Assembly: GCA_001805965.1 (NCBI GenBank)
Contig: MHHG01000053.1
Location: 1,512 to 65,511 of the forward strand
Source of the DNA: Omnitrophica WOR_2 bacterium RIFOXYA2_FULL_38_17
GTDB lineage: Bacteria; Omnitrophota; Gorgyraeia; Zapsychrales; Zapsychraceae
Length of the DNA: 64,000 nucleotides
Direction of reading: 5' to 3'
Position numbers and translations under genes: made by a program. A model generated the notes under the pieces. The model had not been told where the DNA came from, searched no databases, and was given only the letters and a program-made list of their open reading frames with translations. This document shows, piece after piece, positions 23,168-64,000 of the stretch (the first letter of the stretch is position 1; the number at the start of each line of letters is the position of its first letter).

Positions 23168-23169
23168 TA

Positions 23170-45863: not shown

Positions 45864-46787
45864 TCAAAAAGAATGTCCCGTCATTCCATAATAATCGCCA
45901 AAAATTGAACTTGCTGCGTCTTTTCTATTCCTTAATTCGCGAATACGCTCAGCACCTGTCATGTTCTCAAGGTCAGGCTTATCGTAAACAAGCGGTTTCT
46001 CTCTTAAACGAACTTTCATCCCTCCGACACCATCATCAAATACAGTCTTATTTTTCTCTAGCTCCAGGGGAAATTGCTTAATTAATGTTGATTGTTTGTT
46101 TCCCTTTGCTACAAGCGGAGCACCAAATTCATTTGGGTTTATCTGCTTTCCATTTCTAATCATGTTCTCAAGCTCTAACGCAAGGCTCTCATATTTTATT
46201 TTTCTTAATGAAGTAATCAGCTCCAAAACTTTATGGCTATCTCCCTGAAGATAATAAGCAATCCCAAGGCCTAAATATGCATAAGGAGGCTGGTTTGACT
46301 CCTTAGCAGTAACTTTTTCAAAATATTCAATAGCTGAAGAAGCATCTCCCATCCCGATCAAATAAACCCAGCCTAATGATATTTGTACAGAAACCATATT
46401 AGGATCGATCTCAAGAGCCCTTTTGCATGCTGCTTCAGCTTTCTCAAATTCACCTAAACTATAATATGTCTTTCCCAGATTTTCATAACCTGCAGCAAGA
46501 TTTGGGTCCAATTCGACAGCCTTTTCGAAATAATAAATAACATTGTCCAGCTCAAGCCCTTTGGCCCTATAAGCCATTCCAAGATAATTGTAAGAATGCG
46601 CAAATCCCGGATGTATCTTTAATGTTTCATCGAAAAGCTTTATTGCTTGTTCATAATTTCCATTGTCAAACTCTTGCGCTGCTTTTTCAAATATAGTTTT
46701 CAGGCTATTAACATCTATAGGCTCCGCCGCAACCATTGAAGACATGCATATAACAATTGTTATTATAAAAATTATTGGATTTTTCAT
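45864..46787 (-). CDS. Secreted TPR-repeat protein, possibly a pilotin-like accessory
   Basis: Signal peptide plus 5-6 TPR repeats. Lies just downstream of gspM. Confidence 0.6.
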   Translation of the reverse strand: MKNPIIFIITIVICMSSMVAAEPIDVNSLKTIFEKAAQEFDNGNYEQAIKLFDETLKIHPGFAHSYNYLGMAYRAKGLELDNVIYYFEKAVELDPNLAAGYENLGKTYYSLGEFEKAEAACKRALEIDPNMVSVQISLGWVYLIGMGDASSAIEYFEKVTAKESNQPPYAYLGLGIAYYLQGDSHKVLELITSLRKIKYESLALELENMIRNGKQINPNEFGAPLVAKGNKQSTLIKQFPLELEKNKTVFDDGVGGMKVRLREKPLVYDKPDLENMTGAERIRELRNRKDAASSIFGDYYGMTGHSF

Positions 46788-46840: not shown

Positions 46841-47419
46841 CTATTTATTAGCAGCAATTTCTTTTGATGATCTTGAACCGATTGAAACTTTCACTACCGA
46901 CATCGACACATTCACCGTATTCTCAACGCCTCTTTTGGGAGACATATTGAATTTTACTACCTTTAGCAGCTCTTCTGTAGAATTTATTTCGTGCATAAAC
47001 GTTAAAACATCTTCTAATGTTCCTACACAGTCTAAATTCGCATAATATTTATCAAAATCTTTCTCGTGTTTTACTTCTGAAGGGTTGCTTTTAACCAGAT
47101 TGACTTTTGTCTTTGTTGCAAGCCTTTCAACCACGCTTAAAAAATCAGCATTAACGATATCAGCATCTTTCTGGTCCTTGTTAATATAATTCTCATAAAC
47201 CTTTAACTCTCTTACAATCTTATCCTTATATGCCAAAAATCTGATATCTCTAATAACGCTTTGCTCTTGTATAGAAATCTCATTATCAATGGTATAAAGT
47301 TTGCTTAATACCGGGCCCAGAAATAACCTGTCAAAACATGCTAACAGGACAAATAAAACAGTTACATAAAATACTTTTTTCTCGTTCTCAGATAAATTGG
47401 AAATAAATTTCTGAATCAA
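46841..47419 (-). CDS. gspM: T2SS GspM / PilO-like bitopic protein
   Basis: Single N-proximal TM, periplasmic domain, operon position after gspL. Confidence 0.5.
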   Translation of the reverse strand: MIQKFISNLSENEKKVFYVTVLFVLLACFDRLFLGPVLSKLYTIDNEISIQEQSVIRDIRFLAYKDKIVRELKVYENYINKDQKDADIVNADFLSVVERLATKTKVNLVKSNPSEVKHEKDFDKYYANLDCVGTLEDVLTFMHEINSTEELLKVVKFNMSPKRGVENTVNVSMSVVKVSIGSRSSKEIAANK

Positions 47420-47421
47420 CT

Positions 47422-48909
47422 TTACTCCTCCGTAGTTTCCGCTTGAACCACATCATCGTCAGCAAACGATTTTAATTTTAAAGTTATCTCAAAAGCAGAC
47501 ACATCTTTTCCCCTGTCCTTCTTTGAGGTAGTTGACTTTATCTCTACGCTTTTGAAAAGAGGTGACTCTTTTAGCGTTGTGCCTAAATTAAAAACAAGCG
47601 AAGCAATATCAGAAACCCCTTGGATACTTACGCTTCCGTCTTCATCAAGAAATACATTAGTCAAATAAACACTGTCGGGGATATTATAATACAATTCCTT
47701 TATTGTTTCTAAGCTAACCATTCTTCCTGCTAAATATTTTTGAATAATCTTTGTTTGCTTAGCATCTTCCTCAAGCCTTACAACTTCCTCCCTATTAGCC
47801 TTGTACTTTGATTTCAGATTGTTCAAATATGTGCTCTTAAAATAAATACGCAACCCTAAAGTTAAAGCCACTAAAAATAGAACAATAAAACCTGCCATTG
47901 CCGCCCTCAAAAATTCTACCCCTTGTTCCTCCAATGATCTTTGCATAAGGACTTCCTCGGGCATAAGATCAACTTGCATATCCTTAACAATCGATACAGC
48001 AGAGACTATATCAAGGAATGAAGTGTTTGAATAGTTATTGGCTATTTTCTTTAATGCTCCGCTTGCTACTTTAACATTATCAACATAAGGTATAAACTCA
48101 ACTACCCAATTAAGCTTTTCTTTTAAGGCCGTTTGAAGGGCTTTTGTATTTTCATCATCGGTTGTAATCAAATACTGTACCGGAGCAGGCTCAATATCTT
48201 CATTAATGTAAAGGTCCAAAGTCATTTTAATCTCATCAACAAGCTTGTTAATTGCATCTATACCCTCGCTAGCAAGCTGATTTTTACCGACAGGAATGCT
48301 CCTTGAAGAAATAGAGATTCCGCGGAAAGCTATAACAAAATTTGTTGAATTTTCATCAACATCAATGATTCCCTTTGGAGTTGCTTCTGCCTTCCATCCA
48401 AGCGCATCAGAATATAATCCGGCTATACCTTCTGGGGCAAAAAGCACTTTTTCGATCTTAATTCCAGCTTTTTCAAAAACCTCCAACTGGCTTTTAAGAA
48501 CATTTTTGTTGGCAATAACAAGCAGTATCTTTGAATAATTGCTCTTATATACTCCTATGTTCACAAAACCAACCTGGATTTCATCCCTTGAAAACGGCGT
48601 ATGCCTTCCTGCCTGCAAGCCTACAATAGACTTGATCTCTTCAGGATTAGTCGAAGGAACTTCAATATTCTTTGTTGTTACCATGCTAGGAGGGACAACA
48701 CAAACTGCAGTGTATTTCTTTGCATTAAAACTACTTAATGCAGATTGAACAGTTTTAGGAAGATCTGCTTCAGACATTCCCTTAATATCTTTTGAAAAAA
48801 CATTAAGAACTTTACATGCTTTTAACGAACCTTTGACCTGCGCTATTTTCAACAGGTCATCACCCAAAGAAATACAGATATACTCATTGATCTTATTAGA
48901 CATAAACAA
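47422..48909 (-). CDS. gspL: T2SS GspL-like protein (actin-like cytoplasmic domain, TM, periplasmic domain; PilM-PilN-like)
   Basis: N-terminal YICISLGDDLLKIAQV actin-fold start. TM at about residue 330. Periplasmic C-terminal domain. Confidence 0.55.
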   Translation of the reverse strand: MFMSNKINEYICISLGDDLLKIAQVKGSLKACKVLNVFSKDIKGMSEADLPKTVQSALSSFNAKKYTAVCVVPPSMVTTKNIEVPSTNPEEIKSIVGLQAGRHTPFSRDEIQVGFVNIGVYKSNYSKILLVIANKNVLKSQLEVFEKAGIKIEKVLFAPEGIAGLYSDALGWKAEATPKGIIDVDENSTNFVIAFRGISISSRSIPVGKNQLASEGIDAINKLVDEIKMTLDLYINEDIEPAPVQYLITTDDENTKALQTALKEKLNWVVEFIPYVDNVKVASGALKKIANNYSNTSFLDIVSAVSIVKDMQVDLMPEEVLMQRSLEEQGVEFLRAAMAGFIVLFLVALTLGLRIYFKSTYLNNLKSKYKANREEVVRLEEDAKQTKIIQKYLAGRMVSLETIKELYYNIPDSVYLTNVFLDEDGSVSIQGVSDIASLVFNLGTTLKESPLFKSVEIKSTTSKKDRGKDVSAFEITLKLKSFADDDVVQAETTEE

Positions 48910-48985
48910 TCCTTAACATTTGGATATTATATACGATTTAATTTTATTATATACTAATATAACTAACTGTAACAACAGAAAATCA

Positions 48986-50041
48986 TTATTTTTCTCTCCA
49001 ATATTCTATACGATTTTCTAATGCATTATACACGCAGACGGCTTCAAGAACCTCTTCTTTATTACGTATTCTAGCCCTACTTCCTATCAAATAAAAGGAA
49101 GAATTTGTTTTTATTCGTTGGGCTAAATTCAGAAGATCTATCTCTCTTATTTCAGATATTTCTAGTTTTGTAAAGGCAAGCATGTCAACGGCCATGTCAA
49201 AAGTTTTATGAAATATATGGTCATCAACGCTAAAATCTTTGTCATCAAATCCTCTTCGCACCATTAAAAATTTATCAATAACACTTTGGCTCAATCCAAT
49301 AGCATAGAGAACCTGATATGAAGCTGTATTTATATTTACCAAACCATCTCCGTAAACAGTAATGAATGGATACAATCTTTCATATACATCCTCGGTAAAT
49401 CCTTCGACAAGCAACAATTCATCTATAAGCTCAAACGGCTTGCTTTTGATCTCATAGGGAAATTCCAGGTTTGAGTAATATTCATTACTATAGAAACCCT
49501 CGGCATGCGATTGTCCGAATTCCCGCCAATCAATAATATTATTAGCCAACCACGCGGCATCTTCTTGATCAAGCCCCAGAACACTCATTATCAAACGCAC
49601 GATAACATCCTGAGGCGCCACATTAATATTTATTTTACTTTCTGCGTCGACAACTCCATACTTGATTTCAACTGCAGATGAACTGCTGCCATAATAGGGA
49701 TATGACACGTCAAAATACCCGTCTCCGACCACTATTCCCTTGAATTTATCCGGATTATTATGCCTATAATATTTCCCGTATGACGTATAAAGATCACCGT
49801 TCCTGCTGATATCCATCCTTATTGAAGCAATGGCTTTTTTTATTCCAGCATCAGCAATATAATGAAGCTTGCTTCTTGTTTCCAATCTCAAGAGCATTGT
49901 AGCTTTTTGCTGGATCTTCATTCCAATCTGAACAGCAAATACGCTCAAAAAAACAACAGTCCATAAAGCAAGGATCAGAACAGAGCCCGCTCTTTCACGA
50001 CTAATCAAATTTTTAAAATTCATATACAAAGCTCTCGCCAA
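48986..50041 (-). CDS. gspK: T2SS minor pseudopilin GspK-like
   Basis: RGSVLILALWTVVFLSV N-terminus, 351 aa. Confidence 0.6.
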   Translation of the reverse strand: MARALYMNFKNLISRERAGSVLILALWTVVFLSVFAVQIGMKIQQKATMLLRLETRSKLHYIADAGIKKAIASIRMDISRNGDLYTSYGKYYRHNNPDKFKGIVVGDGYFDVSYPYYGSSSSAVEIKYGVVDAESKININVAPQDVIVRLIMSVLGLDQEDAAWLANNIIDWREFGQSHAEGFYSNEYYSNLEFPYEIKSKPFELIDELLLVEGFTEDVYERLYPFITVYGDGLVNINTASYQVLYAIGLSQSVIDKFLMVRRGFDDKDFSVDDHIFHKTFDMAVDMLAFTKLEISEIREIDLLNLAQRIKTNSSFYLIGSRARIRNKEEVLEAVCVYNALENRIEYWREK

Positions 50042-50665
50042 TTATCCGCCTATAGGTATATCAATGAATTTTCTCATTGACCTTTCGCCACGGCTATCTT
50101 TAAACACAACCAATACTTCAATAGCTGAAGGAATATAATCTAAAATTTCATTCTTTGTGATTTCACCTTCAGGGGTTAGAACAAAATAGGTGAATTTCAG
50201 CCTTTCAACAGAGCCAACTATTTTTGATTCTCTAGAATATTGCTCACTTACTGCCTGGCTGTAATTAGCCTGCCTTCTATAAATACTGTCTGATATTGGA
50301 TCAAAATAATATTCTACTTTTCCTAACTGATCAACATATGAACCCTCCGGATGCCCTGATCCCTTATCTGCTTTTGTATAAACTATCGCAGGAAAACTAA
50401 ACCTAAAGACATCACCCTGTGGCTTTATCCTCGAATAAGAATAAACATTTCTCAGATCTTTACTTATTTTATCAAAAAACATTGCTATATCTTCCTCAAC
50501 AACCAGGCGGTTAGACTCCTGCCAAACCCTGATACCGCTAGATAAACAACTGTAAATAGCAACGCTAATTACTGCGATAAGGGATGTTACGATAAGTATC
50601 TCAATCAGCGTCATCGCTGATTTATTTTCCAATCTTTTAATGGACATTTTAAATTGAGTTCTCAT
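50042..50665 (-). CDS. gspJ: Minor pseudopilin (GspJ-like) with a prepilin N-terminal domain
   Basis: ...SAMTLIEILIVTSLIAV... Confidence 0.6.
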   Translation of the reverse strand: MRTQFKMSIKRLENKSAMTLIEILIVTSLIAVISVAIYSCLSSGIRVWQESNRLVVEEDIAMFFDKISKDLRNVYSYSRIKPQGDVFRFSFPAIVYTKADKGSGHPEGSYVDQLGKVEYYFDPISDSIYRRQANYSQAVSEQYSRESKIVGSVERLKFTYFVLTPEGEITKNEILDYIPSAIEVLVVFKDSRGERSMRKFIDIPIGG

Positions 50666-50697
50666 TTTCTTTATTAGTTGGGAAAAATCTAAAGCGG

Positions 50698-51165
50698 CTA
50701 TTTAAAATACTCGAAATCTGAAATATATGCTGAACGCGATAAGATCATTTCCTTCCCGCCAGAATCCCAAAGAAGAGAAAGGTCCAGTTCAAAAACATCT
50801 GCAAAATCTTCAACTTCTGAAATATTCATTCTTTGCCTAAACTCTATCTCTTTCGCTCCGACATTAAGCTTTTCTTTTCTGTTAAGTTCGAACGGTAACG
50901 TTTCATATACCCTTAGCATTCTTTCAATCGCAGTTATCCTATTATCAAGCAGCGTAGTAGCATAAAGCCTATTCGTTAAGTAATTCATGCGGTCTAAGGA
51001 AACTATAAATCCTTTAAAGATAATAACTATACCCAAAGACAGCACTGCAAGGGCAACCATAACCTCAACAAAAGTAAACCCTGAATCTGAAAACAAAAGC
51101 CGTCCTCTTCTCTTAGACAACTTCTCTTTCCTGTTCAGGGTATTATTTTTTCTCTTATGAAACAC
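50698..51165 (-). CDS. Minor pseudopilin (GspH/GspI-like)
   Basis: ...SGFTFVEVMVALAVLSLG... Confidence 0.6.
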   Translation of the reverse strand: MFHKRKNNTLNRKEKLSKRRGRLLFSDSGFTFVEVMVALAVLSLGIVIIFKGFIVSLDRMNYLTNRLYATTLLDNRITAIERMLRVYETLPFELNRKEKLNVGAKEIEFRQRMNISEVEDFADVFELDLSLLWDSGGKEMILSRSAYISDFEYFK

Positions 51166-51215
51166 TTATGTATTTTTGATTTTGCAAAAACTAATATTTA
51201 CAAGCTGGTAAGATT

Positions 51216-51659
51216 CTATTCTTCCCAATTATTTATATCATCACCAGAATTGCTTTTATCTCCGCCTAAAGAACTTAAATCATAGTCCGGCCTCTTCTTT
51301 CCCGGAGAGGTATAAACATAAGGCGAGCCCCACGGGTCAATTGGGTCTTTTTCAATATATGGGCCATTCCAATTGCGAGCCTCTGGAGTTGTGCTAGGCT
51401 TCTTTTTTAAAGCGGCCAATCCTTGTTCTGTAGAAGGGAAAGTCCCGTTATCAAGTTCATAGAGCTTTAATGCCGTAGCTAATTGAGAGTTGATATCTGA
51501 TTTTGCAACAGAAACTTTTGCCTGCTCACTTCTTCCCACAAGCCTGGGGACGACCATAGCAGCTAAAGCTGCAATAATAATAACCACCAGCATAATTTCA
51601 ATTAAAGTAAATGCCTTATTTCCTTTAAATAAAATTCTCATATCTCCTCCAAAGTTCAA
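51216..51659 (-). CDS. gspG: Major pseudopilin GspG (probable start at 51641)
   Basis: AFTLIEIMLVVIIIAALAAMVVPRL...AKVSVAKSDI...DPWGSPYVYTSPG...YDLSSLGGD...DINNW is a near-textbook GspG. Confidence 0.9.
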   Translation of the reverse strand: MNFGGDMRILFKGNKAFTLIEIMLVVIIIAALAAMVVPRLVGRSEQAKVSVAKSDINSQLATALKLYELDNGTFPSTEQGLAALKKKPSTTPEARNWNGPYIEKDPIDPWGSPYVYTSPGKKRPDYDLSSLGGDKSNSGDDINNWEE

Positions 51660-51705
51660 TAACTAATTAATCCATGTAATATCTATATATTATCATACAA
51701 CAGAT

Positions 51706-52557
51706 TTACTGTTTTTTCATATAACTTAACCATTTTTTTTCAAGGTCCTCAACACTATTTATCTTTAACACATAAGCATCTTTTAATGCGCTTTCAAAAT
51801 TCTTACCATCGCGCAAATTCCTGCATAAGCTTCCAAAACGTTGATTCCCATATTCGTCGATCAAGAACTTTACTATTGTATAACTTTCCAAATAAAAGAC
51901 AGTTACTTTTAAAGAATCCTCTTCATCCCTAATATCAACATTAAACAGCACATCAAAAGGGACATATTCATTCGCTTCGATCAATCCCTTCATTGCATGA
52001 CGAGCCCGTGCTGCTTTTTCAGCTTCCTGTAACTGCGCAACACCTTCTTCAAACCACATAGGTATTACTTTCTCAAAGCCAATAAAATCCCATAGAATTA
52101 AATGGCTGATCTCATGGGGAAGGGTCTCATCGACAAATGACCCTTCCTGAACAAATGAAATAATACTTCTGGTGTTTGATAATTGCTTATGCCCGACGAC
52201 ACCTCCCCTTGACCATTCAGGCTGGCCAGTCGCCTCGACAAACGCATCTCTGTCTGAATATATAGTAATAACCGCTCGATTATCCCAGGTCCAAAAATTT
52301 CTATACCGCGCATAACCTATATCTTGCGCTACCTTATCATAATAGATCTCAGACTTATTAAGGATATCTCTTGCCCACGATGCTGTTTCGCTAGATGGAT
52401 ATTTTATAATAAAATGCTTTCCTCTCTCCTCTCTCCATCCGGATGAATTCGCATCTTTAACAACAAGTACATTTTGATGTAAAAGAACAAAGAGAAACAT
52501 GTATAATATTTTCAGTCTTTTTTTCATCTCATCTTTAGTAAAACAATGCAATATCAT
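51706..52557 (-). CDS. Secreted HExxH zinc-metallopeptidase-like protein embedded in the T2SS operon
   Basis: Signal peptide and HEISHLILWDF motif. 4-nt overlap with gspF. Confidence 0.5.
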   Translation of the reverse strand: MILHCFTKDEMKKRLKILYMFLFVLLHQNVLVVKDANSSGWREERGKHFIIKYPSSETASWARDILNKSEIYYDKVAQDIGYARYRNFWTWDNRAVITIYSDRDAFVEATGQPEWSRGGVVGHKQLSNTRSIISFVQEGSFVDETLPHEISHLILWDFIGFEKVIPMWFEEGVAQLQEAEKAARARHAMKGLIEANEYVPFDVLFNVDIRDEEDSLKVTVFYLESYTIVKFLIDEYGNQRFGSLCRNLRDGKNFESALKDAYVLKINSVEDLEKKWLSYMKKQ

Positions 52558-53759
52558 GCAAATACATCAACCTGGAATATAGGCAATAACATGGCAAAAA
52601 CTATAAAGCCTACAATAACTCCAACAAGAAGGATCATCACGGGCTCAAGGAGCGTTGTAGTCATTTTTATCTTCTCGTCAATCTCCTGCTCATAAGTTTC
52701 AGCGATCTCAGCTAAAACATCATTAAGGCTTCCTGACTCTTCTCCAATTGATATCAAGTGCCCCATCATAGCAGGTATTTCGCTAGCAGCTTTTAACGAT
52801 TCTCCAAATGAACCTCCGGTTATAATATCCTGCTCACATTTTTTTAACTGGAGTACAAGCAAATCATTTTTAATTATTGGAGCTGCTATCCCTAAAGCCC
52901 TCACTAAAGGGATACCGCTTCTCATCAATAGTAAAAGGGTCGTCGAAAATCTTGTTAATTCACTTTTCAAAACCAGCTCGCCAAAAAAAGGCAGCCTCAG
53001 CATTGCCTTGCTTGATGCAAATCTACCAATCTTTGTTTTTCCCCACTGATGGAAAACCATAGCTGTAATTAATGACCCTATTATGACCCACGCCCACCAT
53101 TTTGACAAAAATGCGCTGACATTTATCAAGATAACAGTAACTAACGGTAACGCATCGCCCATTGATTCAAACAAGGATGACATCTTCGGCAAGACAAAAG
53201 TCAGAATGAAACAAATAGTCGCAACTCCCACAAATGCCATGAAAACAGGATACGCCATGGCCATTCTGATCTTAGACGATATCTCTTCTTGTCTCTTAAG
53301 ATGCTTTGAGACATTTGATAACATTTCCTGCAGATTGCCGCTTTCCTCACCAGCCCTTACCATGGTTACATATAAATACGGGAATATATTCTTGTATTCT
53401 GATATACATTCAGAAAAAGATTTTCCGTTCCTAACTCCCTGAACAATGTAATAAATAACTTTTCTGAAATACTGGTTAGCTGTCTGATCTTCAATAATCG
53501 TTAATGCCTTAAGAAGGGAAACACCCGCACGAAGAAGATTTACAAGCTGTTTACTAAACACATATAGCTCTTTCGTCCCGACTTTTCTTGCCAGGACGAT
53601 TTTCTTCCCTGGTTTGCCAACTTCTTCTTCCGTCACAGATACAGGGAGCAAACCTAGCTGATTGATAATATTTACTGCATCATCCTGGCTATTGGCATTT
53701 ATCTTGCCATTGACAGTTTCAGCATTTCTTTTTTTAGCTATATAGATGTATGTTTTCAT
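52554..53759 (-). CDS. gspF: T2SS inner-membrane platform protein GspF
   Basis: Two T2SF repeats, 3 TM segments, 401 aa. Confidence 0.85.
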   Translation of the reverse strand: MKTYIYIAKKRNAETVNGKINANSQDDAVNIINQLGLLPVSVTEEEVGKPGKKIVLARKVGTKELYVFSKQLVNLLRAGVSLLKALTIIEDQTANQYFRKVIYYIVQGVRNGKSFSECISEYKNIFPYLYVTMVRAGEESGNLQEMLSNVSKHLKRQEEISSKIRMAMAYPVFMAFVGVATICFILTFVLPKMSSLFESMGDALPLVTVILINVSAFLSKWWAWVIIGSLITAMVFHQWGKTKIGRFASSKAMLRLPFFGELVLKSELTRFSTTLLLLMRSGIPLVRALGIAAPIIKNDLLVLQLKKCEQDIITGGSFGESLKAASEIPAMMGHLISIGEESGSLNDVLAEIAETYEQEIDEKIKMTTTLLEPVMILLVGVIVGFIVFAMLLPIFQVDVFA

Positions 53760-53841
53760 TTTAAAAAACTAATTCTTTTGAACGCCTTAAAAGATCACAA
53801 ATAGCAGATTAATATATTTTCAGATTCGATATTTCGGAAGG

Positions 53842-56100
53842 CTACTCTGCTGCTGAATTCTCGATAAACTTCTTAATAGATGCACGGTCAGCACTTGATA
53901 GATCAAGATAATAATTTACCATTGTATAAATATTTTCCATGCTATCTTCTTCTACCCTGCAAACCTTTGCTAAACACTCGATAGCTTTTTGGCTATGATC
54001 GATATATATCTTTAACTCTATGATCGACCCTATTTGAATTCTTTCTTTTGAAATAAATCTTAATCCCCCGGCGCTAATATCTTCAGTAACTGTTGTATAT
54101 TCCACTCCGCTTGGTACCAAAAAGTTCGGATCAGTTGCATCGATCTTTAGCGGGCAATATCTGATTTCAACATGTTCGAACACCCTGGGAAAAACCCTGG
54201 CATCATATAAATTCTTCACTTCCCACGTGCTCTGCCTTTTTATTTTATCACTGCGTGTAACGCGCCTTACTGCCCCTAATCCTTCCGTTTTTGCATATGA
54301 CATCTGCTCAGTTTCAAAGGCCCTCGCGCCTAAATGCTTTCTGTCGCGCTCCTTTCTTATTGCCATAAGATCCTTTTCCTCATCCTTTACAGTAACATTC
54401 ATAATTTCGCTGGGAGTTGTTTGACCTTCAAGGACTACTTTCCAGCCATTCTGCCTAAGAGATACCATGCCTTCCTGCATAGCTATCCTCTTTATATAAT
54501 CTGCTCTTGGATGGTCTAACACTGCTGACCTTATAGCATCATTAACCCTTAGTATCTCATAAATAGCCATTCTCCCGAAATATCCTGTGTGATTACAGTA
54601 ATCGCATCCCTCGCCCTTAAAGATCTTTATATCTTTTTGCTGCTCTTCTGTGAGGAATAAAGATGTCACAATTTCTTTCTTAATTCCCTCAGGAACATCA
54701 ACAACTTCTTTTTTACATTTCGGACAATTAACCCGCACCAGCCTTTGTGCAACAAAAGCTTCAACGCTTGAAGATACTAAATATGGCTCGATCCCCATAT
54801 CTATTAGCCTTGTTATGCCACTTGCCGAATCATTGGTATGTAAAGTTGAAAAGACCATATGCCCCGTCAGAGCTGTTCTTATTGCAATTTCTGCAGTCTC
54901 CACATCCCTTACCTCTCCGACCATAATAATATCCGGGTCATGCCTTAAGATACTCCTTAAACCATTAGAAAAATTGAAATCAACTTTTGAATTGACCTGG
55001 ACCTGGGTTATTCCTTCCATTTCATACTCAACAGGGTCTTCAATAGTGATTATCTTTCTCTCCGGAGAATTTATTTCATTTAAGCATGCATAAAGAGTAG
55101 TGGTCTTGCCGCTTCCCGTAGGGCCGGTAAGAAAGACTATCCCATATGGATTCTTTATAATTTCCCTGAATTTCTCGACGGTATCCTGGTTGAACCCCAG
55201 CTTCTCAAGCGAAAAAAGCATGACCTTTGTAGGAAGTATTCTAATAACCATACTCTCGCCCATAGGCGTTGGCATTGTAGAGATCCTTAAATCAAGCTTT
55301 TGCTCCCTAGTTTTAACAACCGTGCTCCCATCTTGAGGAAGACGCTTTTCGGTAATACTTAAATTAGCAAGTATCTTTATCCTGGATAATATCTGCGTAA
55401 GAAAATGCTTTAGCTTATCTGAAACATTTGCATCTACTAGAACCCCATCAATTCTATATCTGAACCTAACTTTATCCCTGTATGGCTCAATATGAATATC
55501 CGTTGCGCGCTTCTTAAAGGCCTCAAGTATTATTTGGTTTACAAGATTTGATACCGTCGGGTCCTGCGTCTCCCTTTCAATATCCTCGATCCATTGAACA
55601 TCAGTTGCAGATACAGACGCCTTTCTGACAGGATCTTTTGAAATGATCTTATCTATCGTGTCAGATGTAAAGCCATAATACTTTTTTAATGCCTCATTAA
55701 TTTCACTTTCAAGTGCAAGACAAAAATTAACATTAACGCCCAAATTCATCCTGATCTCATCATTAAGTATTACATCGATAGGTTTTGCAGAGGCAACCGT
55801 TATAACATTATCCTCAAACTTAACAGGCATAATTTTATAATACCAGGCAAATTTAACAGGAACCTTGTCAATAACACCTTGCTCTACATGAATATTACCT
55901 AGTTCAACAGATTCTATATTTAGCCCTCTAGAAAGTGAAACCAGGATCTGCCTTTCTGTAACGATATGATTGGAAAGAAGGTATTCTTTTAAAGACAACC
56001 CTTCATCTTTAGCTATTCTAGAATGATCTTTGATTTCTTCATTGGAAAGGACATTATTACTTGCTAAATTTTCCTGCAGTATTTTATCAAATTGCTTCAT
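53842..56100 (-). CDS. gspE: T2SS/T4P assembly ATPase GspE with a C-terminal PilZ domain
   Basis: N1E domain, Walker A GPTGSGKTT, tetra-Cys region CPKCKK...CDYC. C-terminal RVFPR (RxxxR) ... EDISAGGLRF (DxSxxG) PilZ signature. Confidence 0.85.
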   Translation of the reverse strand: MKQFDKILQENLASNNVLSNEEIKDHSRIAKDEGLSLKEYLLSNHIVTERQILVSLSRGLNIESVELGNIHVEQGVIDKVPVKFAWYYKIMPVKFEDNVITVASAKPIDVILNDEIRMNLGVNVNFCLALESEINEALKKYYGFTSDTIDKIISKDPVRKASVSATDVQWIEDIERETQDPTVSNLVNQIILEAFKKRATDIHIEPYRDKVRFRYRIDGVLVDANVSDKLKHFLTQILSRIKILANLSITEKRLPQDGSTVVKTREQKLDLRISTMPTPMGESMVIRILPTKVMLFSLEKLGFNQDTVEKFREIIKNPYGIVFLTGPTGSGKTTTLYACLNEINSPERKIITIEDPVEYEMEGITQVQVNSKVDFNFSNGLRSILRHDPDIIMVGEVRDVETAEIAIRTALTGHMVFSTLHTNDSASGITRLIDMGIEPYLVSSSVEAFVAQRLVRVNCPKCKKEVVDVPEGIKKEIVTSLFLTEEQQKDIKIFKGEGCDYCNHTGYFGRMAIYEILRVNDAIRSAVLDHPRADYIKRIAMQEGMVSLRQNGWKVVLEGQTTPSEIMNVTVKDEEKDLMAIRKERDRKHLGARAFETEQMSYAKTEGLGAVRRVTRSDKIKRQSTWEVKNLYDARVFPRVFEHVEIRYCPLKIDATDPNFLVPSGVEYTTVTEDISAGGLRFISKERIQIGSIIELKIYIDHSQKAIECLAKVCRVEEDSMENIYTMVNYYLDLSSADRASIKKFIENSAAE

Positions 56101-56102
56101 GT

Positions 56103-57674
<1,572 letters not shown>

Positions 57675-58526
57675 CTATTTCATAGTCATCATTCTTGCAG
57701 AAAATGTTTCACGAAGACTTTTATCAATATCACCTTTTTTTGCCTTAATATATTTCATGCCGACTTTTGTTCTTTCCTTCTTCATTTTGTCGACACTATC
57801 CTCAAGGAAGCTTGATTGTGCAGAAGCTGAAGCAATGATCGTATCAATAAAGATCTCATATAATCTTGTAGATACCCATAGATTTGTCAGGATCCCGATC
57901 ACCTGCATTGGATCAGACTCTTCAATAACCTCATCAAAAATATCCACAAATTCATGCTGCTTTTTTAACAAGTCAACACATGGCAACAGCTGAACTACTT
58001 TCCTTAATTGTGTGTCAAATGATTTTGGCCATGCGTAAACGACTAAAACCTTGCCAAGCCTGTCATTCATGATCTCGTCAACAAGATAATCCTTGACCAT
58101 AATAACCGTCTCATAAATACCTATAGCCTCCATATTATTAAAGGCTCTAATGTTCTGATCAATCTCTCTAAAACGAGCTTCCGCCTTGTTTCCAACTGCA
58201 ATTAATTTTACATCTTCATATTTTTCTTTTTCTTCAATAGCTGTTCTAAGTATCTTGTTATTAAATTCACCTAAAAAACTACCTTCTATGGTTACGGCTA
58301 ATATTCCGACTTTCTTGTTATCATTTTCGATCATAGGATGCTTTTTCTCAGTTAAACTTATCATCCTAAAGAACTCAACAAAAGTCTGTCCAAACCTTCT
58401 GAATTTATTTTTCTCGTTCATCAAAGTAAAGAGCTTGTTGTCAGCAATATCCTTCAACGTTTGAACAAGTTCAACCATTTCCTTTACATCTAACAATTCC
58501 CCTTTTACTTTACTTGCTTTACCCAT
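57675..58526 (-). CDS. atpG: F-type ATPase gamma subunit (divergent)
   Basis: 283 aa, with N- and C-terminal helices resembling gamma. Position between the b-delta fusion and beta. Confidence 0.65.
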   Translation of the reverse strand: MGKASKVKGELLDVKEMVELVQTLKDIADNKLFTLMNEKNKFRRFGQTFVEFFRMISLTEKKHPMIENDNKKVGILAVTIEGSFLGEFNNKILRTAIEEKEKYEDVKLIAVGNKAEARFREIDQNIRAFNNMEAIGIYETVIMVKDYLVDEIMNDRLGKVLVVYAWPKSFDTQLRKVVQLLPCVDLLKKQHEFVDIFDEVIEESDPMQVIGILTNLWVSTRLYEIFIDTIIASASAQSSFLEDSVDKMKKERTKVGMKYIKAKKGDIDKSLRETFSARMMTMK

Positions 58527-58563
58527 TTACAATTACCTTATATTCTTTAACACAATATCATAG

Positions 58564-59304
58564 TTAAAAATCAGAGGCAGCTTGTTTTTGTAGGGCTAAA
58601 CCCTTCTCTAGTATTGACTTCTTTATGCTTCCATCTAAAGCCATACTACCAAATTTTAAAAGAACTCCTCCGCCAATTTTTTCATCTGTGACAAAATTAA
58701 TATCTATCTTTCTGTTCATTTTCTTTAAAATGACCGCAGTTAACTTTTCTTTTACTTTAGCCTCAATTTGAGAAACTGCAACAACATCAACACTTTTTAT
58801 TTTATCATCGATCCTGCTCATATCCGTCTCTTCAAGATTAGATAAGAACTCATTTATTAAAACTTCGCTTAAAGCCCCTTTTGCCTTTTCACTCAATATT
58901 TTATTAAGTATTTCCATACTAAAATTTATCAGCTTAACATCAAACTCAGCCTGAATTTCTTGACGTATCTTATCTTTTGCATTCTGAGCTTTAGTGATAA
59001 TTTCCTCACCTTCTTCTCTTGCTTTTGAAACGGTCTTGTCCCTTTCAGCTTTCATTTCTTCTTCTGCCTCTTGGCGCAATTTATCGGTCAACTCCTTAAC
59101 CTCGATTTTCCTTTTCTCAAGCTGTTCATCCGCGTCTTTGATTTTCCTGCTTAATTCCGCCTGTTTTGCATTAGCCTTACTGATCTCATCATTAAGACTG
59201 TCAATCGCTTTCTGCTTACTCATATCAAAGGATCTTTTAACAAAAAACAATATGGCCCCTAAAAGCAACCCTACTAAAATAAAAAATTTTAAAATCAATT
59301 CCAT
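58564..59304 (-). CDS. atpF: F-type ATPase b subunit fused to the C-terminal domain of delta (OSCP)
   Basis: N-terminal TM, a 150-aa charged helix, and a C-terminus ...VTDEKIGGGVLLKFGSMALDGSIKKSILEKGL that matches the delta C-terminal consensus. Confidence 0.65.
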   Translation of the reverse strand: MELILKFFILVGLLLGAILFFVKRSFDMSKQKAIDSLNDEISKANAKQAELSRKIKDADEQLEKRKIEVKELTDKLRQEAEEEMKAERDKTVSKAREEGEEIITKAQNAKDKIRQEIQAEFDVKLINFSMEILNKILSEKAKGALSEVLINEFLSNLEETDMSRIDDKIKSVDVVAVSQIEAKVKEKLTAVILKKMNRKIDINFVTDEKIGGGVLLKFGSMALDGSIKKSILEKGLALQKQAASDF

Positions 59305-59374
59305 ATTAATTAACTCCTTTTATAAAGCATTTTTAATACCAGTCAGAAAAAAGTCTTATATAAAGTACTATTTT

Positions 59375-59608
59375 TTAATGATGAAAAACATTATAAAACA
59401 TGATCAAAAGAACAAAAGTTATGATTTCTGTAACGATCAACTTCCATACAATACTCATTTGTATCGCAGGCGTTTTTGTTGGATATCTGCCCAGGTCACC
59501 TATCATCTTATTTCCCAGCAGGGCAACTATTATACAAGGAACAATGATTATAACTGCATAAACACATGCAAATACAAATGCCTCTCTCCATAAATCAAAT
59601 TCAACCAT
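59375..59608 (-). CDS. Divergent second c-type (proteolipid-like) hairpin subunit
   Basis: 2 TM segments, a loop GRYP (compare RQP), and the conserved carboxylate E exactly 20 residues after the loop Arg, as in c subunits. Lacks a Gly-rich helix 1. Confidence 0.45.
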   Translation of the reverse strand: MVEFDLWREAFVFACVYAVIIIVPCIIVALLGNKMIGDLGRYPTKTPAIQMSIVWKLIVTEIITFVLLIMFYNVFHH

Positions 59609-59630
59609 TATTAATAATCCTTAAAATAAT

Positions 59631-59849
59631 CTATTTCCCAAAAAGCTGAAATATGACCAAAATAGCAACTATAGATATACCCTCAACAAAAATAAGCATA
59701 ACCACCATACCCATAAATATTTTAGAAGCCGCCGAAGGATTTCTTGCTAATGCCTTTACAACTGCCCTGCCAAGGACAGCAATAACAATAGCCGGCCCTA
59801 AAACAGCAACTAACATGATACCGACTATAATGAATGTCTCTGCTATCAT
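59631..59849 (-). CDS. atpE: F-type ATPase c subunit (H+-type: E with no S/T partner)
   Basis: 72-aa hairpin with ARNP loop and E 20 residues after the loop Arg. Confidence 0.8.
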   Translation of the reverse strand: MIAETFIIVGIMLVAVLGPAIVIAVLGRAVVKALARNPSAASKIFMGMVVMLIFVEGISIVAILVIFQLFGK

Positions 59850-59871
59850 AAATTTATCCTATTTGTAATAT

Positions 59872-60159
59872 TTAAAATTCATCTTCCTGATCAACGATCT
59901 TCTTTTTTATCTGCTCTTCAACCATAATTGTGCACTCATTCGCAAAAAACCTGACAACTCCTCCATTTATTGGGATCCTTTCGTTCATATCAATAACAAC
60001 ATCACCTTTAACTAAAACACCTAACAAAGGATAATGATATGCTAAAAGCTCATACTCTCCTGTATCACCTGTGAGAAATACTGACTCAGCCTCCTTTTCA
60101 TATATCAATCTATATGGGCTTATAATAATGCATTTAAATTTTTGCGAAAATTGTACCAT
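59872..60159 (-). CDS. atpC: F-type ATPase epsilon subunit, beta-sandwich domain only (no C-terminal helical hairpin)
   Basis: ...FLTGDTGEYELLAYHYPLLGVLVKGDVVI...IPINGGVVRF.ANECTIMVE matches the epsilon N-terminal domain, 95 aa. Confidence 0.75.
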   Translation of the reverse strand: MVQFSQKFKCIIISPYRLIYEKEAESVFLTGDTGEYELLAYHYPLLGVLVKGDVVIDMNERIPINGGVVRFFANECTIMVEEQIKKKIVDQEDEF

Positions 60160-60164
60160 ATTAA

Positions 60165-61712
60165 TTACTCATTCTTGGATGTTGCTTCTTCCAGGATATC
60201 CCTGCCTATATTTGACAGGATATCGGTATCCTCTTCATCTTCAATTTCTGGCCTTATCCCAGATGTCTTATTGAGATATGCCTCTATAATTTCATTAAAG
60301 GCATTTTCTATTTCCTCATCCATTTTTTTCCTTGCACGTAATTTTGTGATAATCTCAGGATTAAGGTCTTTTGCAAATTCTAAAATATTAAGCTGAAACT
60401 GATTAACAGCTTCTAAAGTTGGCAATTTATGCAAATACTTTTTATTAAATGCATATAATATGAGCACTAAAGATTCCATCGCCACCGGGCTGTCTTTATC
60501 CTGCCTTAATACACATCTCAATATCTCTCCGCTCCTAAGCTGCTCTAAAACCTCGTCTGATTGAGAACCTGACCTTAACTTAGACAGTCTTTCTAACTCC
60601 CTAAACTGCAAAAATTCAAGTCGCAAAGGCCCGCTCAACTGTTTAATAATAGGCCACTGTACCTTAGTACCGACACGTGAAACAGAAAGCCCCAGATCCA
60701 GCGCAGGTTTTTGACCTTCACCAAAGAGGGCAGCATCAAGCATTATCTGCCCATCGGTCATAGAAACAAGATTAGACGGAACAAAAGCAGTCAAGTCTCC
60801 CTCAAGAATCTCAACAATAGGCAGGAATGTCATCGAGCCTTGACCATGATCTTCATCCAAGTAACATGCGCGTTCGATCATCTTGGAATGCAGATAAAAA
60901 ATATCGCCAGGATAAGAATCTCTACCTGGTGCCCTTCCTAATAATAGAGAGATCTCCCTATAACACCAGGCATGCTTGGTAAAATCATCAAATCCAATAA
61001 ACACATGTTTGCCTCTATGCATAAAATATTCACCGATCGAACAAGCAACATAAGGCGACAAATACTGCTGCCCTGGAGGGCTTGATGAAGGCGCCGCAAC
61101 GATAATAGTATAATCAAATGCATCATAATCCTGAAAAAGCTGAACAACTCTTGCAAGCTGCGACCTTGCTTTGCCTGTTGCAACATAAATACATATGACC
61201 CCGGTATCCTTCTGATTCAAGATCGTATCAGTAATAAATGTTGTCTTTCCAGTCATCTTGTTACCAAGGATCAACTGTCTTTGCCCCAAGCCAATAGGTA
61301 TCATTGAATCAAGGACCTTGGTGCCGGTTTCAAGCGTAAGACATAATGGAAGTCTTTCAAGAATAGCAGGAGCAGCCGGAAAAATTGGATAGTATGCATC
61401 TTCCTTTATCGGGCCTAATCCGTCAAACGGCTCACATAATGAAGTAACAATACGTCCTATAAAATTCTTTCCAACAGGCACCCTAAAAGGCTCTAGCGAT
61501 GCCCTTGCTTCATCACCCGTTCTGATCTTAGATGCTTCTTTTAATATCAAAACGTTTGCTTCCTGCTCATTAAAGCCTAAGATCATACCAATGGAACCAT
61601 AACCAAAATTGATCAGCTGCCCATTAATACAATGATTTAGCCCGACGACATTGATAATACAGCCACGGATACTTTTTACATAACCAACTTCTGTATATTG
61701 TAATTCTGCCAC
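60165..61712 (-). CDS. atpA: F-type ATPase alpha subunit
   Basis: GNKMTGKTTFITDTILNQK P-loop and ...YREISLLLGRAPGRDSYPGDIFYLHSKMIERA... Confidence 0.9.
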   Translation of the reverse strand: MAELQYTEVGYVKSIRGCIINVVGLNHCINGQLINFGYGSIGMILGFNEQEANVLILKEASKIRTGDEARASLEPFRVPVGKNFIGRIVTSLCEPFDGLGPIKEDAYYPIFPAAPAILERLPLCLTLETGTKVLDSMIPIGLGQRQLILGNKMTGKTTFITDTILNQKDTGVICIYVATGKARSQLARVVQLFQDYDAFDYTIIVAAPSSSPPGQQYLSPYVACSIGEYFMHRGKHVFIGFDDFTKHAWCYREISLLLGRAPGRDSYPGDIFYLHSKMIERACYLDEDHGQGSMTFLPIVEILEGDLTAFVPSNLVSMTDGQIMLDAALFGEGQKPALDLGLSVSRVGTKVQWPIIKQLSGPLRLEFLQFRELERLSKLRSGSQSDEVLEQLRSGEILRCVLRQDKDSPVAMESLVLILYAFNKKYLHKLPTLEAVNQFQLNILEFAKDLNPEIITKLRARKKMDEEIENAFNEIIEAYLNKTSGIRPEIEDEEDTDILSNIGRDILEEATSKNE

Positions 61713-61781
61713 GCTATCTTTCCTCCTAAAATAATAATCAAATTACACAACAGCATTTCAACACAATCCACGATACTATCT

Positions 61782-63098
61782 TTATTCTTGTTCCTCGCTC
61801 TCTTTCTCTTCTTCCTCCTCTTTACGCTTATCTCTCGAACGTTTTGCCCAGATAGAAAAATGAATAATTGTAATAATGGCAACAACAATGACGATCCCAG
61901 TAATTATGTGCCATGATGTGTCATATGTAGGTTTCTTAAATAAATTTTTTGCAAGTTCTGCAATATTTGCTAAAGATTTTATCTGCATTAGAACATTCTT
62001 CAGTTTACTTCTTTCAAGCTCTTCTCTGATCGCCGTTAAAAGATCTTCTAATGACTCAACATCACCCTTTGCCAACTCATAAAGTTTAGAATTGGCTTCA
62101 AAATCACTGATATGCTTATTTATATCTTTATCTTGGCTCTGCGATGCTTCGATAGATTCCAAATTGTTCTTAATAGCTTTAACCAGATATTGTGCACTAT
62201 CAATATATTTAGACTTCTCTAAAAGCTTATAAGTTTTTCTGGTTCGTTCCCTTAAATTTTCAATATCTGTGTTCTTTATATTCCAGATATCAAGTATTTC
62301 AATATTAAAACGTTTTTTCTCGCTAGGCTGGAACTCATCTTCTCTTACAATATAAGTCTGGCCTTTAACTGCATCATAATGAACTTCAAAACCTTCTGCT
62401 TCAATAACATGTTCAGGCCTTACATCAGTTGGCAAATAATGTTCATGCTCTTGTTTTGTAACATCAGTATCAGATTTATTTTGCGTCTCAACAACAAACC
62501 TTACTGTGCCAGTAGTTTCATCGGCCAGATCACTTCTCCAGTAAGTAACAGAAAGCGCTTCTTTCCTTATCTCATTAAGTTCTCGTTCATAAACCTTAAA
62601 ACTTTCAATCCTTCTTTTAACATCATTTTCATATCGTGCCTGCTGTGCTAAAACGCTTTCAACTCTTTTATGCAGGCTTTCTTTTTTTCTCAATCCTGAA
62701 TCATAATATTCGGTATCCTTCAAGTTCTCATAATTCTTATCAATTTGTGCTACTACATCAGCAACAACTTCTTCTTTGACCTTCCAAATGTCCCTTATTA
62801 CGACCTTGTAAGTCTTAGTTTCTTTCGGATTGAGAGTTACGTCACCATAAACAAAATAAGCGCCTTCTGCAATATCATAATCTATTTTTAGGCCAGCAGG
62901 ATCAACAATATCTTCGACTGAAACACCAAGCGGCAAAACAAACTTTATATTTTTATCTTTTGTTGATTCAGTACCATTAACAGCCAGTATGTTAATCGTA
63001 ACATCACTATAAACATGGCCAGCTATTCCAAAGATCATAATAAAGCTGGCCAAGAAGCTTAACACCTTCTGTCGATATCTACTTCTAATTTGGCTCAT
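61782..63098 (-). CDS. Hypothetical bitopic protein: signal/anchor, internally duplicated beta-rich plus coiled-coil domain, C-terminal TM and acidic tail
   Basis: Two repeats (...YDIAEGAYFVYGDVTLNPKETKTYKVVIRDIWKV / ...YDAVKGQTYIVREDEFQPSEKKRFNIEILDIWNIK). TM WHIITGIVIVVAIITIIHFSIW then KRKEEEEEKESEEQE. Confidence 0.5.
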   Translation of the reverse strand: MSQIRSRYRQKVLSFLASFIMIFGIAGHVYSDVTINILAVNGTESTKDKNIKFVLPLGVSVEDIVDPAGLKIDYDIAEGAYFVYGDVTLNPKETKTYKVVIRDIWKVKEEVVADVVAQIDKNYENLKDTEYYDSGLRKKESLHKRVESVLAQQARYENDVKRRIESFKVYERELNEIRKEALSVTYWRSDLADETTGTVRFVVETQNKSDTDVTKQEHEHYLPTDVRPEHVIEAEGFEVHYDAVKGQTYIVREDEFQPSEKKRFNIEILDIWNIKNTDIENLRERTRKTYKLLEKSKYIDSAQYLVKAIKNNLESIEASQSQDKDINKHISDFEANSKLYELAKGDVESLEDLLTAIREELERSKLKNVLMQIKSLANIAELAKNLFKKPTYDTSWHIITGIVIVVAIITIIHFSIWAKRSRDKRKEEEEEKESEEQE

Positions 63099-63100
63099 GT

Positions 63101-64000
63101 TTAATCACTTTCAAACCAGGTCTTAACAACTATGTCGTCAGCATCGACAGACTCCTTAATAGCCAATAGGACTGCATTCATTTCATTTAGCTTTTCTTTA
63201 ATAGTGTCGAGATCTGTTATCTCTGTCTCATTTAGAGTCTTGATCTCTAGCTCAAGGCCATAAATATCTGCACTTTGATTTACAAGTCCTGCTAACATAT
63301 CTATCATCTCGACAGCATAAGCCTCAGAATCACCTGTTGATGAAGACAGATCTGCTGTAGCCGCCCTAATATCTTCAACCATAGAGCTCAACTCCAAGAC
63401 CTTATCATACATCGGCGCCTTGCCATTGATCCCAAGATCATCCCTCATCGAAGTTACTATACCTAGAGCAGCATCCGCACTTTGTTTTCCGGTATTAGCG
63501 TTATCCTGAATATCATTTAGCTTCCCATACATAGTTGTATCTGTCGTTGCATCTGCTGCTGTGCCGATAAGATCAAGAGTCTCTTTGAGGTCTCCAAAGA
63601 CTGTAGACTGAGCAGATGTATCCGTCGGAGTTCCCAATCTTGTTATGATAGTATCAATATCCGTTCCTATTGTATCTAGGTCTGTCGTTCCTGACATTGA
63701 AGCAACAGCTTGGTCTATAACATAAAGTTTTCCAAATAATGTTGCATCTACATCTGTATCTGTTGACTCTCCGATCAAAGTATCTAAGGTTGCAACAGCT
63801 GTTACAATTGATGAAACATTCGTAATTAAAGTACCTGCATTGTCAGATAAGAATGCAATACCCTCCCAGTTAATGCCTGCATCTGACATATTCTTAAAAT
63901 CTAGCCAGTTAATACCGCCACCTGTCATTGAACCCATTCCATCCCAGTTAATGCCTGCCAATGTCATATCAGCCAAAGCATCCCAATTAATATTCTGACC
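63101..64000 (-). CDS. Hypothetical protein with N-terminal INW 12-13-aa tandem repeats. Partial: the N-terminus lies beyond the window end.
   Basis: The ORF stays open to the window edge (...GQNINWDALADMTLAGINWDGMGSMTGGGINWLDFKNMSDAGINWEGIAF...). The track's M at 63976 is a TTG codon. Confidence 0.45.
   Translation of the reverse strand, partial: GQNINWDALADMTLAGINWDGMGSMTGGGINWLDFKNMSDAGINWEGIAFLSDNAGTLITNVSSIVTAVATLDTLIGESTDTDVDATLFGKLYVIDQAVASMSGTTDLDTIGTDIDTIITRLGTPTDTSAQSTVFGDLKETLDLIGTAADATTDTTMYGKLNDIQDNANTGKQSADAALGIVTSMRDDLGINGKAPMYDKVLELSSMVEDIRAATADLSSSTGDSEAYAVEMIDMLAGLVNQSADIYGLELEIKTLNETEITDLDTIKEKLNEMNAVLLAIKESVDADDIVVKTWFESD

Follow-up and report, generated by a model that had tools for sequence, protein, structure and literature searches.

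The minus strand of a 64,000-nt stretch of Omnitrophica WOR_2 bacterium RIFOXYA2_FULL_38_17 (assembly GCA_001805965.1, contig MHHG01000053.1, forward-strand positions 1,512-65,511; this whole stretch is the window referred to below) carries genes for a divergent F-type rotary ATPase that run directly into the genes of a pseudopilus apparatus resembling a type II secretion system (T2SS). Judging from gene content and synteny, we think it probable that this is an accessory enzyme, made with and working for the T2SS-like pseudopilus or surface apparatus and probably hydrolysing ATP. A functional link between the ATPase and pseudopilus genes is a sensible reading because the two sets are adjacent in about 80 Omnitrophota species, lie only 1-3 nt apart in roughly half of the loci and stay together in a second gene order; the same observations disfavour chance adjacency, as the initial annotation of this DNA had argued.

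From position 64000 down to 45864 the minus strand is an unbroken run of co-directional, closely packed open reading frames (ORFs), most of which were assigned by Pfam and NCBIfam profile searches of their translations. In order they encode an INW-repeat protein, a 438-amino-acid (aa) protein (p438), alpha, epsilon, c, c′, a b-delta fusion, gamma, beta, GspE-PilZ, GspF and an HExxH peptidase, followed by GspG, three minor pseudopilins, a PilM-PilN (GspL-like) fusion, a GspM-like protein and a TPR protein. The ORFs, strand and gene order given in the initial annotation agree with these calls, and the conserved block runs on downstream to the TPR gene (45864-46787), beyond the range of 46841-64000 considered there. 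That annotation had put all gaps at 70 nt or less apart from 82 nt between gspE and gspF; the packing is indeed close, but this gap is not the sole exception, as gspK and pilMN are 76 nt apart when measured with the longest ORF starts. Direct reading of the sequence at the atpD-gspE junction bore out its description:

56098..56112, minus strand: atpD-gspE junction, reading GAGG (56112-56109), ctt, the TAA stop of beta (56105-56103), ac and the ATG of gspE (56100), so that 2 nt separate the beta stop from the gspE start

No terminator-like sites lie between the genes of the block, and the count of such sites was not above that in shuffled sequences. As the promoter and terminator scans both returned counts no higher than in shuffled sequence, they are uninformative on transcription units.

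The ATPase genes of the block are the following.

60165..61712, minus strand: F1 alpha (PF00006 and PF00306; TIGR00962 505 bits against a cutoff of 484)
59872..60159, minus strand: short epsilon, 95 aa (PF02823 only, the beta-sandwich domain alone)
59631..59849, minus strand: c subunit, 72 aa (PF00137; equivalog score 23 against a cutoff of 44)
59375..59608, minus strand: c′, 77 aa, without Pfam or NCBIfam annotation; a divergent c paralogue by hhalign
58564..59304, minus strand: b-delta fusion with one transmembrane (TM) segment, a b-like helix and a delta C-terminal region (PF00213, OSCP, at residues 105-231)
57675..58526, minus strand: gamma, strongly divergent (PF00231 over its full length; TIGR01146 70 bits against a cutoff of 194)
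56103..57659, minus strand: F1 beta (TIGR01039 521 bits against a cutoff of 463)

A scan with one genome per GTDB species gave 80 loci, to which all 19 window proteins were compared by tblastn; the adjacency is not confined to this genome. Almost all of the loci are labelled Omnitrophota; the window beta shares 70-91% identity with hundreds of proteins encoded in metagenome-assembled genomes (MAGs) of this phylum, and across the loci beta identity falls to 53-70%. The gene order from the INW-repeat protein through the TPR protein is essentially fixed across the 80 loci, the peptidase gene being variable. Of the 72 loci with at least 1 kb of downstream flank, 71 have gspE directly after beta, with its start no more than 400 nt from the beta stop, and in roughly half of 78 loci the gap is only 1-3 nt. 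The single exception, L050, has a co-directional gene for a 1149-aa signal-peptide protein between beta and gspE (L050 4984-8433). Wherever there is enough upstream flank the full alpha-epsilon-c-b-delta-gamma-beta order is present (51/51), T2SS genes were found in 49 of 50 loci, and independent metagenome contigs have the same arrangement. A more distant, second architecture (L081 1-6510; L086 83-14299), with ATPase genes in a canonical-like order, reads delta, alpha, gamma, beta and GspE (with or without PilZ), then GspF, peptidase and GspG through to PilMN and GspM, with a TPR gene between beta and gspE in L086. The metagenome scan for this arrangement gave these two loci only, both cut off upstream. 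As the gsp genes are retained in it, the pseudopilus link survives rearrangement of the atp genes. Many of the MAGs that carry the cluster (L007, L010, L017, L077 and others) are labelled ‘uncultured Planctomycetales’, and the labels Lysobacterales and Patescibacteria occur once each; mislabelling or mis-binning is the probable cause.

The initial annotation knew of no described system in which such an ATPase is joined to a secretion or pseudopilus machine. That was wrong, because Seymour et al. (2023; PMC10066038) had already reported a non-respiratory F-type ATPase beside type-IV-pilus clusters in all Omnitrophota classes; the functional inference drawn in the annotation nevertheless matches the published one. 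The block is a rediscovery of that pairing. In their survey both systems occur together on 66 contigs, and on 57 of these they lie no more than 10 kb apart; here the ATPase and filament genes, directly adjacent at 2 nt, fall within that distance. With the same phylum, the same pairing and Ca. Zapsychrus exili among the orthologues, we judge the two to be the same thing. Their tree of alpha splits ‘respiratory’ from ‘symbiotic’ clades, the symbiotic type being patchy (e.g. 56/111 Velamenicoccia species); they inferred that the unit has been both transferred horizontally and lost within the phylum, and the role proposed was attachment to, or motility on, host cells. For the alpha of the window, orthology to the Ca. 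Zapsychrus exili locus (L016) is the only pointer to the symbiotic clade, and an indirect one. A literature search found no later publication extending the Omnitrophota ATPase/pilus system. Of 176 complete genomes surveyed in a 2026 preprint, alpha and beta were detected in 125 and gamma in only 30, and the complex is called incomplete there; such KEGG-style scoring of Omnitrophota as having an incomplete F1Fo arises because gamma, epsilon and c diverge. The giant-gene ‘T2SS-like locus’ of West-Roberts 2023 was considered as a prior description and set aside as a different cluster, with rcpC, gspD and a rotamase; ‘ATP synthase’ is not mentioned there, and the single ‘ATPase’ hit is the name of a histidine-kinase domain. 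Seymour et al. give no subunit inventory, and the absence of subunit a, the c′ protein, the fused b-delta and the shortened epsilon go unmentioned. What is added here is the inventory, the c/c′ pair, the divergence scores, the T2SS-like character of the filament genes, the carboxylate losses and the second gene order.

The catalytic head looks competent, to judge from the P-loops of both subunits, the GERxREGN motif of beta and the SVSRVG arginine finger of alpha, all of which are conserved among the orthologues. Neither subunit reached the cutoffs of the N-ATPase models TIGR03324 and TIGR03305 (459 against 750.5 and 455 against 752, respectively) or of the Mycoplasma type 2/3 models (MMOB1660/1670 and MSC_0619/0618: 367/600, 426/850, 274/520 and 397/570), and on the FliI/SctN models they scored just 160-195 bits. 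Against PDB entries, beta matched canonical beta at about 450 bits and the Mycoplasma mobile G1 beta at 356 bits. Seymour et al. place alpha with the Mycoplasma type 2/3 ATPases, whereas here alpha and beta do best with canonical models; the profile and PDB scores, which are similarity scores and not a tree, do not fit that placement. Beta has a variable, Lys/Glu-rich N-terminal extension and alpha an acidic C-terminal tail. Alpha also lacks about 20 N-terminal residues, its PDB alignments starting at canonical alpha residues 22-30. In canonical enzymes the N-terminal 20 or so residues of alpha bind delta. The delta part of the b-delta fusion is detectable only in its C-terminal portion, behind the b-like helix, and the loss at the N-terminus of alpha together with this partial delta suggests a remodelled attachment of the peripheral stalk.

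The other stalk subunits depart further from the canonical models. The best NCBIfam match of the b-delta fusion is the N-ATPase b subunit (TIGR03321), over its full length at 46.7 against a cutoff of 224.7; it also falls below the canonical cutoffs for delta (23.5/57.5) and b (21.5/65.5), and its PDB matches are to mycobacterial b-delta (residues 9-194) and to delta C-terminal domains (residues 162-230). Gamma belongs to a family of 394 proteins, all source-named members of which are from Omnitrophota. Epsilon covers positions 2-90 of the 130 in TIGR01216 (44 bits against a cutoff of 67) and the C-terminal helical domain is absent; the orthologues are likewise short (median 92 aa in 69 recovered by tblastn), and the same short form is seen in an alignment of 64 sequences. 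Taken together, the divergent subunits suggest a remodelled contact between stalk and crown.

In the rotor, c′ is a genuine c paralogue: hhalign of alignments of 66 c and 67 c′ orthologues joins them end to end with the membrane carboxylate aligned (probability 97.9%, E 3e-13), and this end-to-end alignment rules out c′ as AtpQ/AtpR or as a remnant of subunit a. The TM2 carboxylate of c is replaced in four of the 66 species, which are close to the window organism (L007 S, L013 I, L021 I and L082 V). The acid of c′ is retained in 54 of 67 and lost in 13 species, other than the four with the loss in c, and its VPC motif and loop proline are conserved. No species lacks the acid in both proteins. 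Since about 0.8 double losses would be expected by chance, this pattern is not significant and proves nothing, and the apparent complementarity of the c and c′ carboxylates was set aside as statistically not meaningful. The claim that the ATPase set lacks subunit a held up: no ATP-synt_A match was found in the block or in the rest of the 64-kb window, subunit a is absent also from the conserved block of the related loci, and no ORF of the block or the rest of the window matched a second ATPase.

The pseudopilus half is encoded by the following genes.

53842..56100, minus strand: GspE/PilB-type assembly ATPase (PF00437, PF05157 as an N-terminal MshEN domain and PF07238 as a C-terminal PilZ domain)
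52554..53759, minus strand: GspF platform protein (PF00482 twice; best match TIGR02120, 351 bits against a cutoff of 424)
51706..52557, minus strand: HExxH metallopeptidase (PF13485, Peptidase_MA_2) with a hydrophobic N-terminus
51216..51659, minus strand: major pseudopilin GspG (PF08334 and N_methyl; TIGR01710 149.8 bits, passing a cutoff of 88.85)
50698..51165, minus strand: GspI-like minor pseudopilin (N_methyl; TIGR01707 33.6 bits, below cutoff)
50042..50665, minus strand: minor pseudopilin in the GspJ position (prepilin N-terminal motif only)
48986..50041, minus strand: GspK-like minor pseudopilin (PF21687; NF037980 75 bits, below cutoff)
47422..48909, minus strand: PilM-PilN fusion of GspL-like architecture (PF11104 and PF05137)
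46841..47419, minus strand: GspM/PilO-like bitopic protein (NF040576 GspM 26.7 bits, below cutoff)
45864..46787, minus strand: TPR protein (TPR Pfam families), the last conserved gene of the block

The GspM-like gene is syntenic in 55 loci and the TPR gene in 51; gspF and gspG occur together in 63 loci, and 47 of these include the HExxH peptidase gene. GspE scores nearly equally on the GspE (566/630, its best match) and PilB (554/676) models, below cutoff on both. Its PilZ domain, reading RVFPR...DISAGG in the window, is fused to GspE in 38 of 73 orthologues, the other 35 having a plain GspE, and the RxxxR and D/NxSxxG motifs are intact in all 38, marking a putative receptor for cyclic di-GMP (c-di-GMP). 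Like canonical T2SSs, the block has GspE, F, G, I-like, K, L-like and M-like components in the usual order; unlike them, it has a PilZ domain fused to GspE, an inserted HExxH peptidase, and GspE and GspF scores below cutoff. No secretin GspD, GspC or prepilin peptidase was found in the block or the 64-kb window, and these may lie elsewhere in the genome. Seymour et al. call the filament genes a type IVa pilus (T4aP), whereas neither PilT nor a PilA-type major pilin was found in the block and the major subunit is of the GspG type; by its profile matches this half is T2SS-like rather than T4aP.

Two further genes lie upstream of alpha.

63101..64000, minus strand: C-terminal part of the INW-repeat protein, with no in-frame stop up to base 64000, so that the ORF leaves the window; no Pfam match
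61782..63098, minus strand: p438, a 438-aa bitopic envelope protein without Pfam or NCBIfam match

Orthologues of the INW-repeat protein are large secreted proteins built of GINWxD repeats of about 13 aa. Their length varies: a complete example with a signal peptide (L070, 2054-4660) has 868 aa, the ORF measures at least 1500 aa in 21 loci, and the L004 record reaches 3096 aa. Many contigs break or carry Ns inside the repeats; within the window a tandem-repeat search found no DNA-level tandem array in this region. As the INW-repeat stop lies within about 6 nt of the p438 start, or slightly overlaps it, in most loci, the operon probably starts upstream of the window. p438 has 76 homologues, all source-named ones from Omnitrophota, and is syntenic in all loci that extend far enough upstream. 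Its AlphaFold2 (AF2) model (pLDDT 85) has two modules, each a beta-sandwich plus a three-helix bundle, between N- and C-terminal TM helices; fold comparison gave no informative match.

The rest of the window holds other genes, among them an 875-aa STT3/PglB-type oligosaccharyltransferase (43170-45797, plus strand), convergent to the end of the block. A 1535-aa ORF (34749-39356, minus strand) has HATPase_c, in two stretches, as its sole Pfam match. Transketolase is split into separate genes for its N- and C-terminal halves (22226-24009, minus strand), which adjoin a transaldolase, a 6-phosphogluconolactonase-like gene and PFK.

The signs that this may not be the housekeeping enzyme are the divergent gamma, epsilon, c and b-delta subunits, the short epsilon, the trimmed alpha, the carboxylate losses and the lack of ATP-synt_A in the window. 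On the interpretation that we favour, of an accessory ATPase serving the pseudopilus apparatus, a catalytically competent F1 head would run in the hydrolysis direction, its epsilon lacking the inhibitory C-terminal domain and its operon supplying no ion channel. The ATPase would be made together with the pseudopilus apparatus, as its motor or energiser, and cells would use the apparatus for attachment to surfaces or for export, the INW-repeat protein being one possible substrate. In roughly half of the lineages the PilZ domain of GspE could provide an input for c-di-GMP. Direct observation covers the gene content, the conserved motifs, the synteny across the phylum and the close spacing. From them we infer the direction of hydrolysis, the physical association of the two halves and their biological role.

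Several observations weigh against this interpretation. Alpha and beta both reach the canonical atpA/atpD equivalog cutoffs of NCBIfam. The RNP loop of c is invariant (66/66 orthologues) and the TM2 carboxylate, Glu55, is retained in the window and in 62 of 66 species, which is the pattern of a working ion-binding rotor and hence a hint of an a-like partner somewhere. Nothing in the sequences indicates that the ATPase touches the T2SS proteins, and GspE is already the canonical ATPase for pseudopilus assembly. A more specific form of the proposal is that the complex acts as a torque generator and not as an ion pump, hydrolysis turning a mixed c/c′ ring that is held by the b-delta stator. Within the inner membrane this rotation would mechanically drive either the T2SS-like platform or the export of the INW-repeat protein. 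We put this forward tentatively and consider it unlikely; a pilus or secretion machine assisted by a rotary motor in this way would have no characterised precedent.

The main rival is a housekeeping role: the block would encode the F1Fo ATP synthase or proton pump of the cell, atpB would lie elsewhere, and the position beside the T2SS-like genes would reflect only shared regulation or history. Split atp operons occur in other bacteria. The equivalog scores of alpha and beta and the conservation of the catalytic residues, the RNP loop and, for the most part, Glu55 are what such an enzyme would show, and an F-type ATPase module was scored in 37 of 39 members of the Zapsychrales (Seymour et al., 2023; PMC10066038), the order of Ca. 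Zapsychrus exili, whose beta is 83% identical to that of the window and whose orthologous locus is L016. Against this, c and b-delta sit in the operon and a alone is missing, the c carboxylate has been lost in four species, epsilon is truncated and gamma very divergent, and the gsp synteny is invariant over about 80 species and two gene orders. The patchy distribution in the phylum and the separate ‘respiratory’ clade of alpha (Seymour et al., 2023; PMC10066038), together with the V/A-type ATPases in 70-99% of most Gorgyraeia (2026 preprint), point the same way, and we regard the housekeeping explanation as distinctly unlikely.

Quite improbable, in our view, is a dedicated H+ or Na+ pump that works through an unrecognised substitute for subunit a (e.g. 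c′, the b-delta TM segment, p438 or GspF) and generates a local membrane potential used by the secretion or pilus machine. T2SS function depends on the proton-motive force as well as on ATP, 94% of species retain Glu55 of c, and each species has an acid in at least one of c and c′. Yet that last pattern is, as noted above, what chance would give, no conserved membrane-embedded arginine is evident in the c′ or b-delta alignments and no protein of the block resembles subunit a by Pfam or NCBIfam. A frozen accident inherited by one lineage without functional meaning is highly improbable: shared ancestry does contribute to the conservation, given that the loci all belong to a single phylum, but the link has outlasted divergence of beta to 53-70% identity, rearrangement of the ATPase genes and the transfers and losses inferred for the unit by Seymour et al. 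(2023; PMC10066038), with near-zero intergenic spacing maintained.

Among known systems, the F1-like X0 ATPases of Mycoplasma types 2 and 3 (Beven et al., 2012, PMC3369863; M. mobile G1-ATPase, PDB 9io5) are likewise an additional set of alpha, beta, gamma and epsilon without a respiratory role. The bacteria that carry them depend on a host and have small genomes, and the enzymes are thought to power a surface machine and not ATP synthesis. Their clusters have seven genes, four F1-like and three for unique proteins, and lack c, b and delta (PMC3369863). Unlike them, the present block has c, c′ and b-delta.

The N-ATPase, according to what Dibrova and colleagues reportedly set out in 2010, is an alternate F1Fo with the operon atpDCQRBEFAG, including subunit a, AtpQ and AtpR. 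The block would resemble it as a second, laterally mobile F-type operon of unusual gene order. The N-ATPase also has a long b and no separate delta, and the b-delta fusion, whose full-length match to the N-ATPase b model stays below cutoff, may be comparable. It differs in the lack of a, AtpQ and AtpR, in its order (alpha-epsilon-c-c′-b-delta-gamma-beta) and in its extra small protein, which is a c paralogue. The FliI-FliJ-FliH complex of the flagellar and injectisome type III secretion systems, an F1-related homohexamer with a gamma-like stalk and a b-plus-delta-like FliH tether that sits on the export machine, is a precedent for a relative of the rotary ATPases serving secretion. It is a homohexamer, has no c ring and belongs to an unrelated secretion system, whereas the present block has a genuine alpha3beta3-type pair.

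If the accessory reading is true, the Mycoplasma gliding motor would no longer be the sole example of an F-type rotary enzyme taken over for mechanical work or export; this would be the second, and the first to retain a c ring and peripheral stalk yet lack an ion channel. The a-less architecture with its c/c′ pair is a worthwhile target for structural and biochemical work. Misreading the cluster as the cell's ATP synthase would lead to misjudgement of Omnitrophota energy metabolism, and the system may underlie attachment to, or attack on, hosts by the ultra-small predatory or parasitic members of the phylum.

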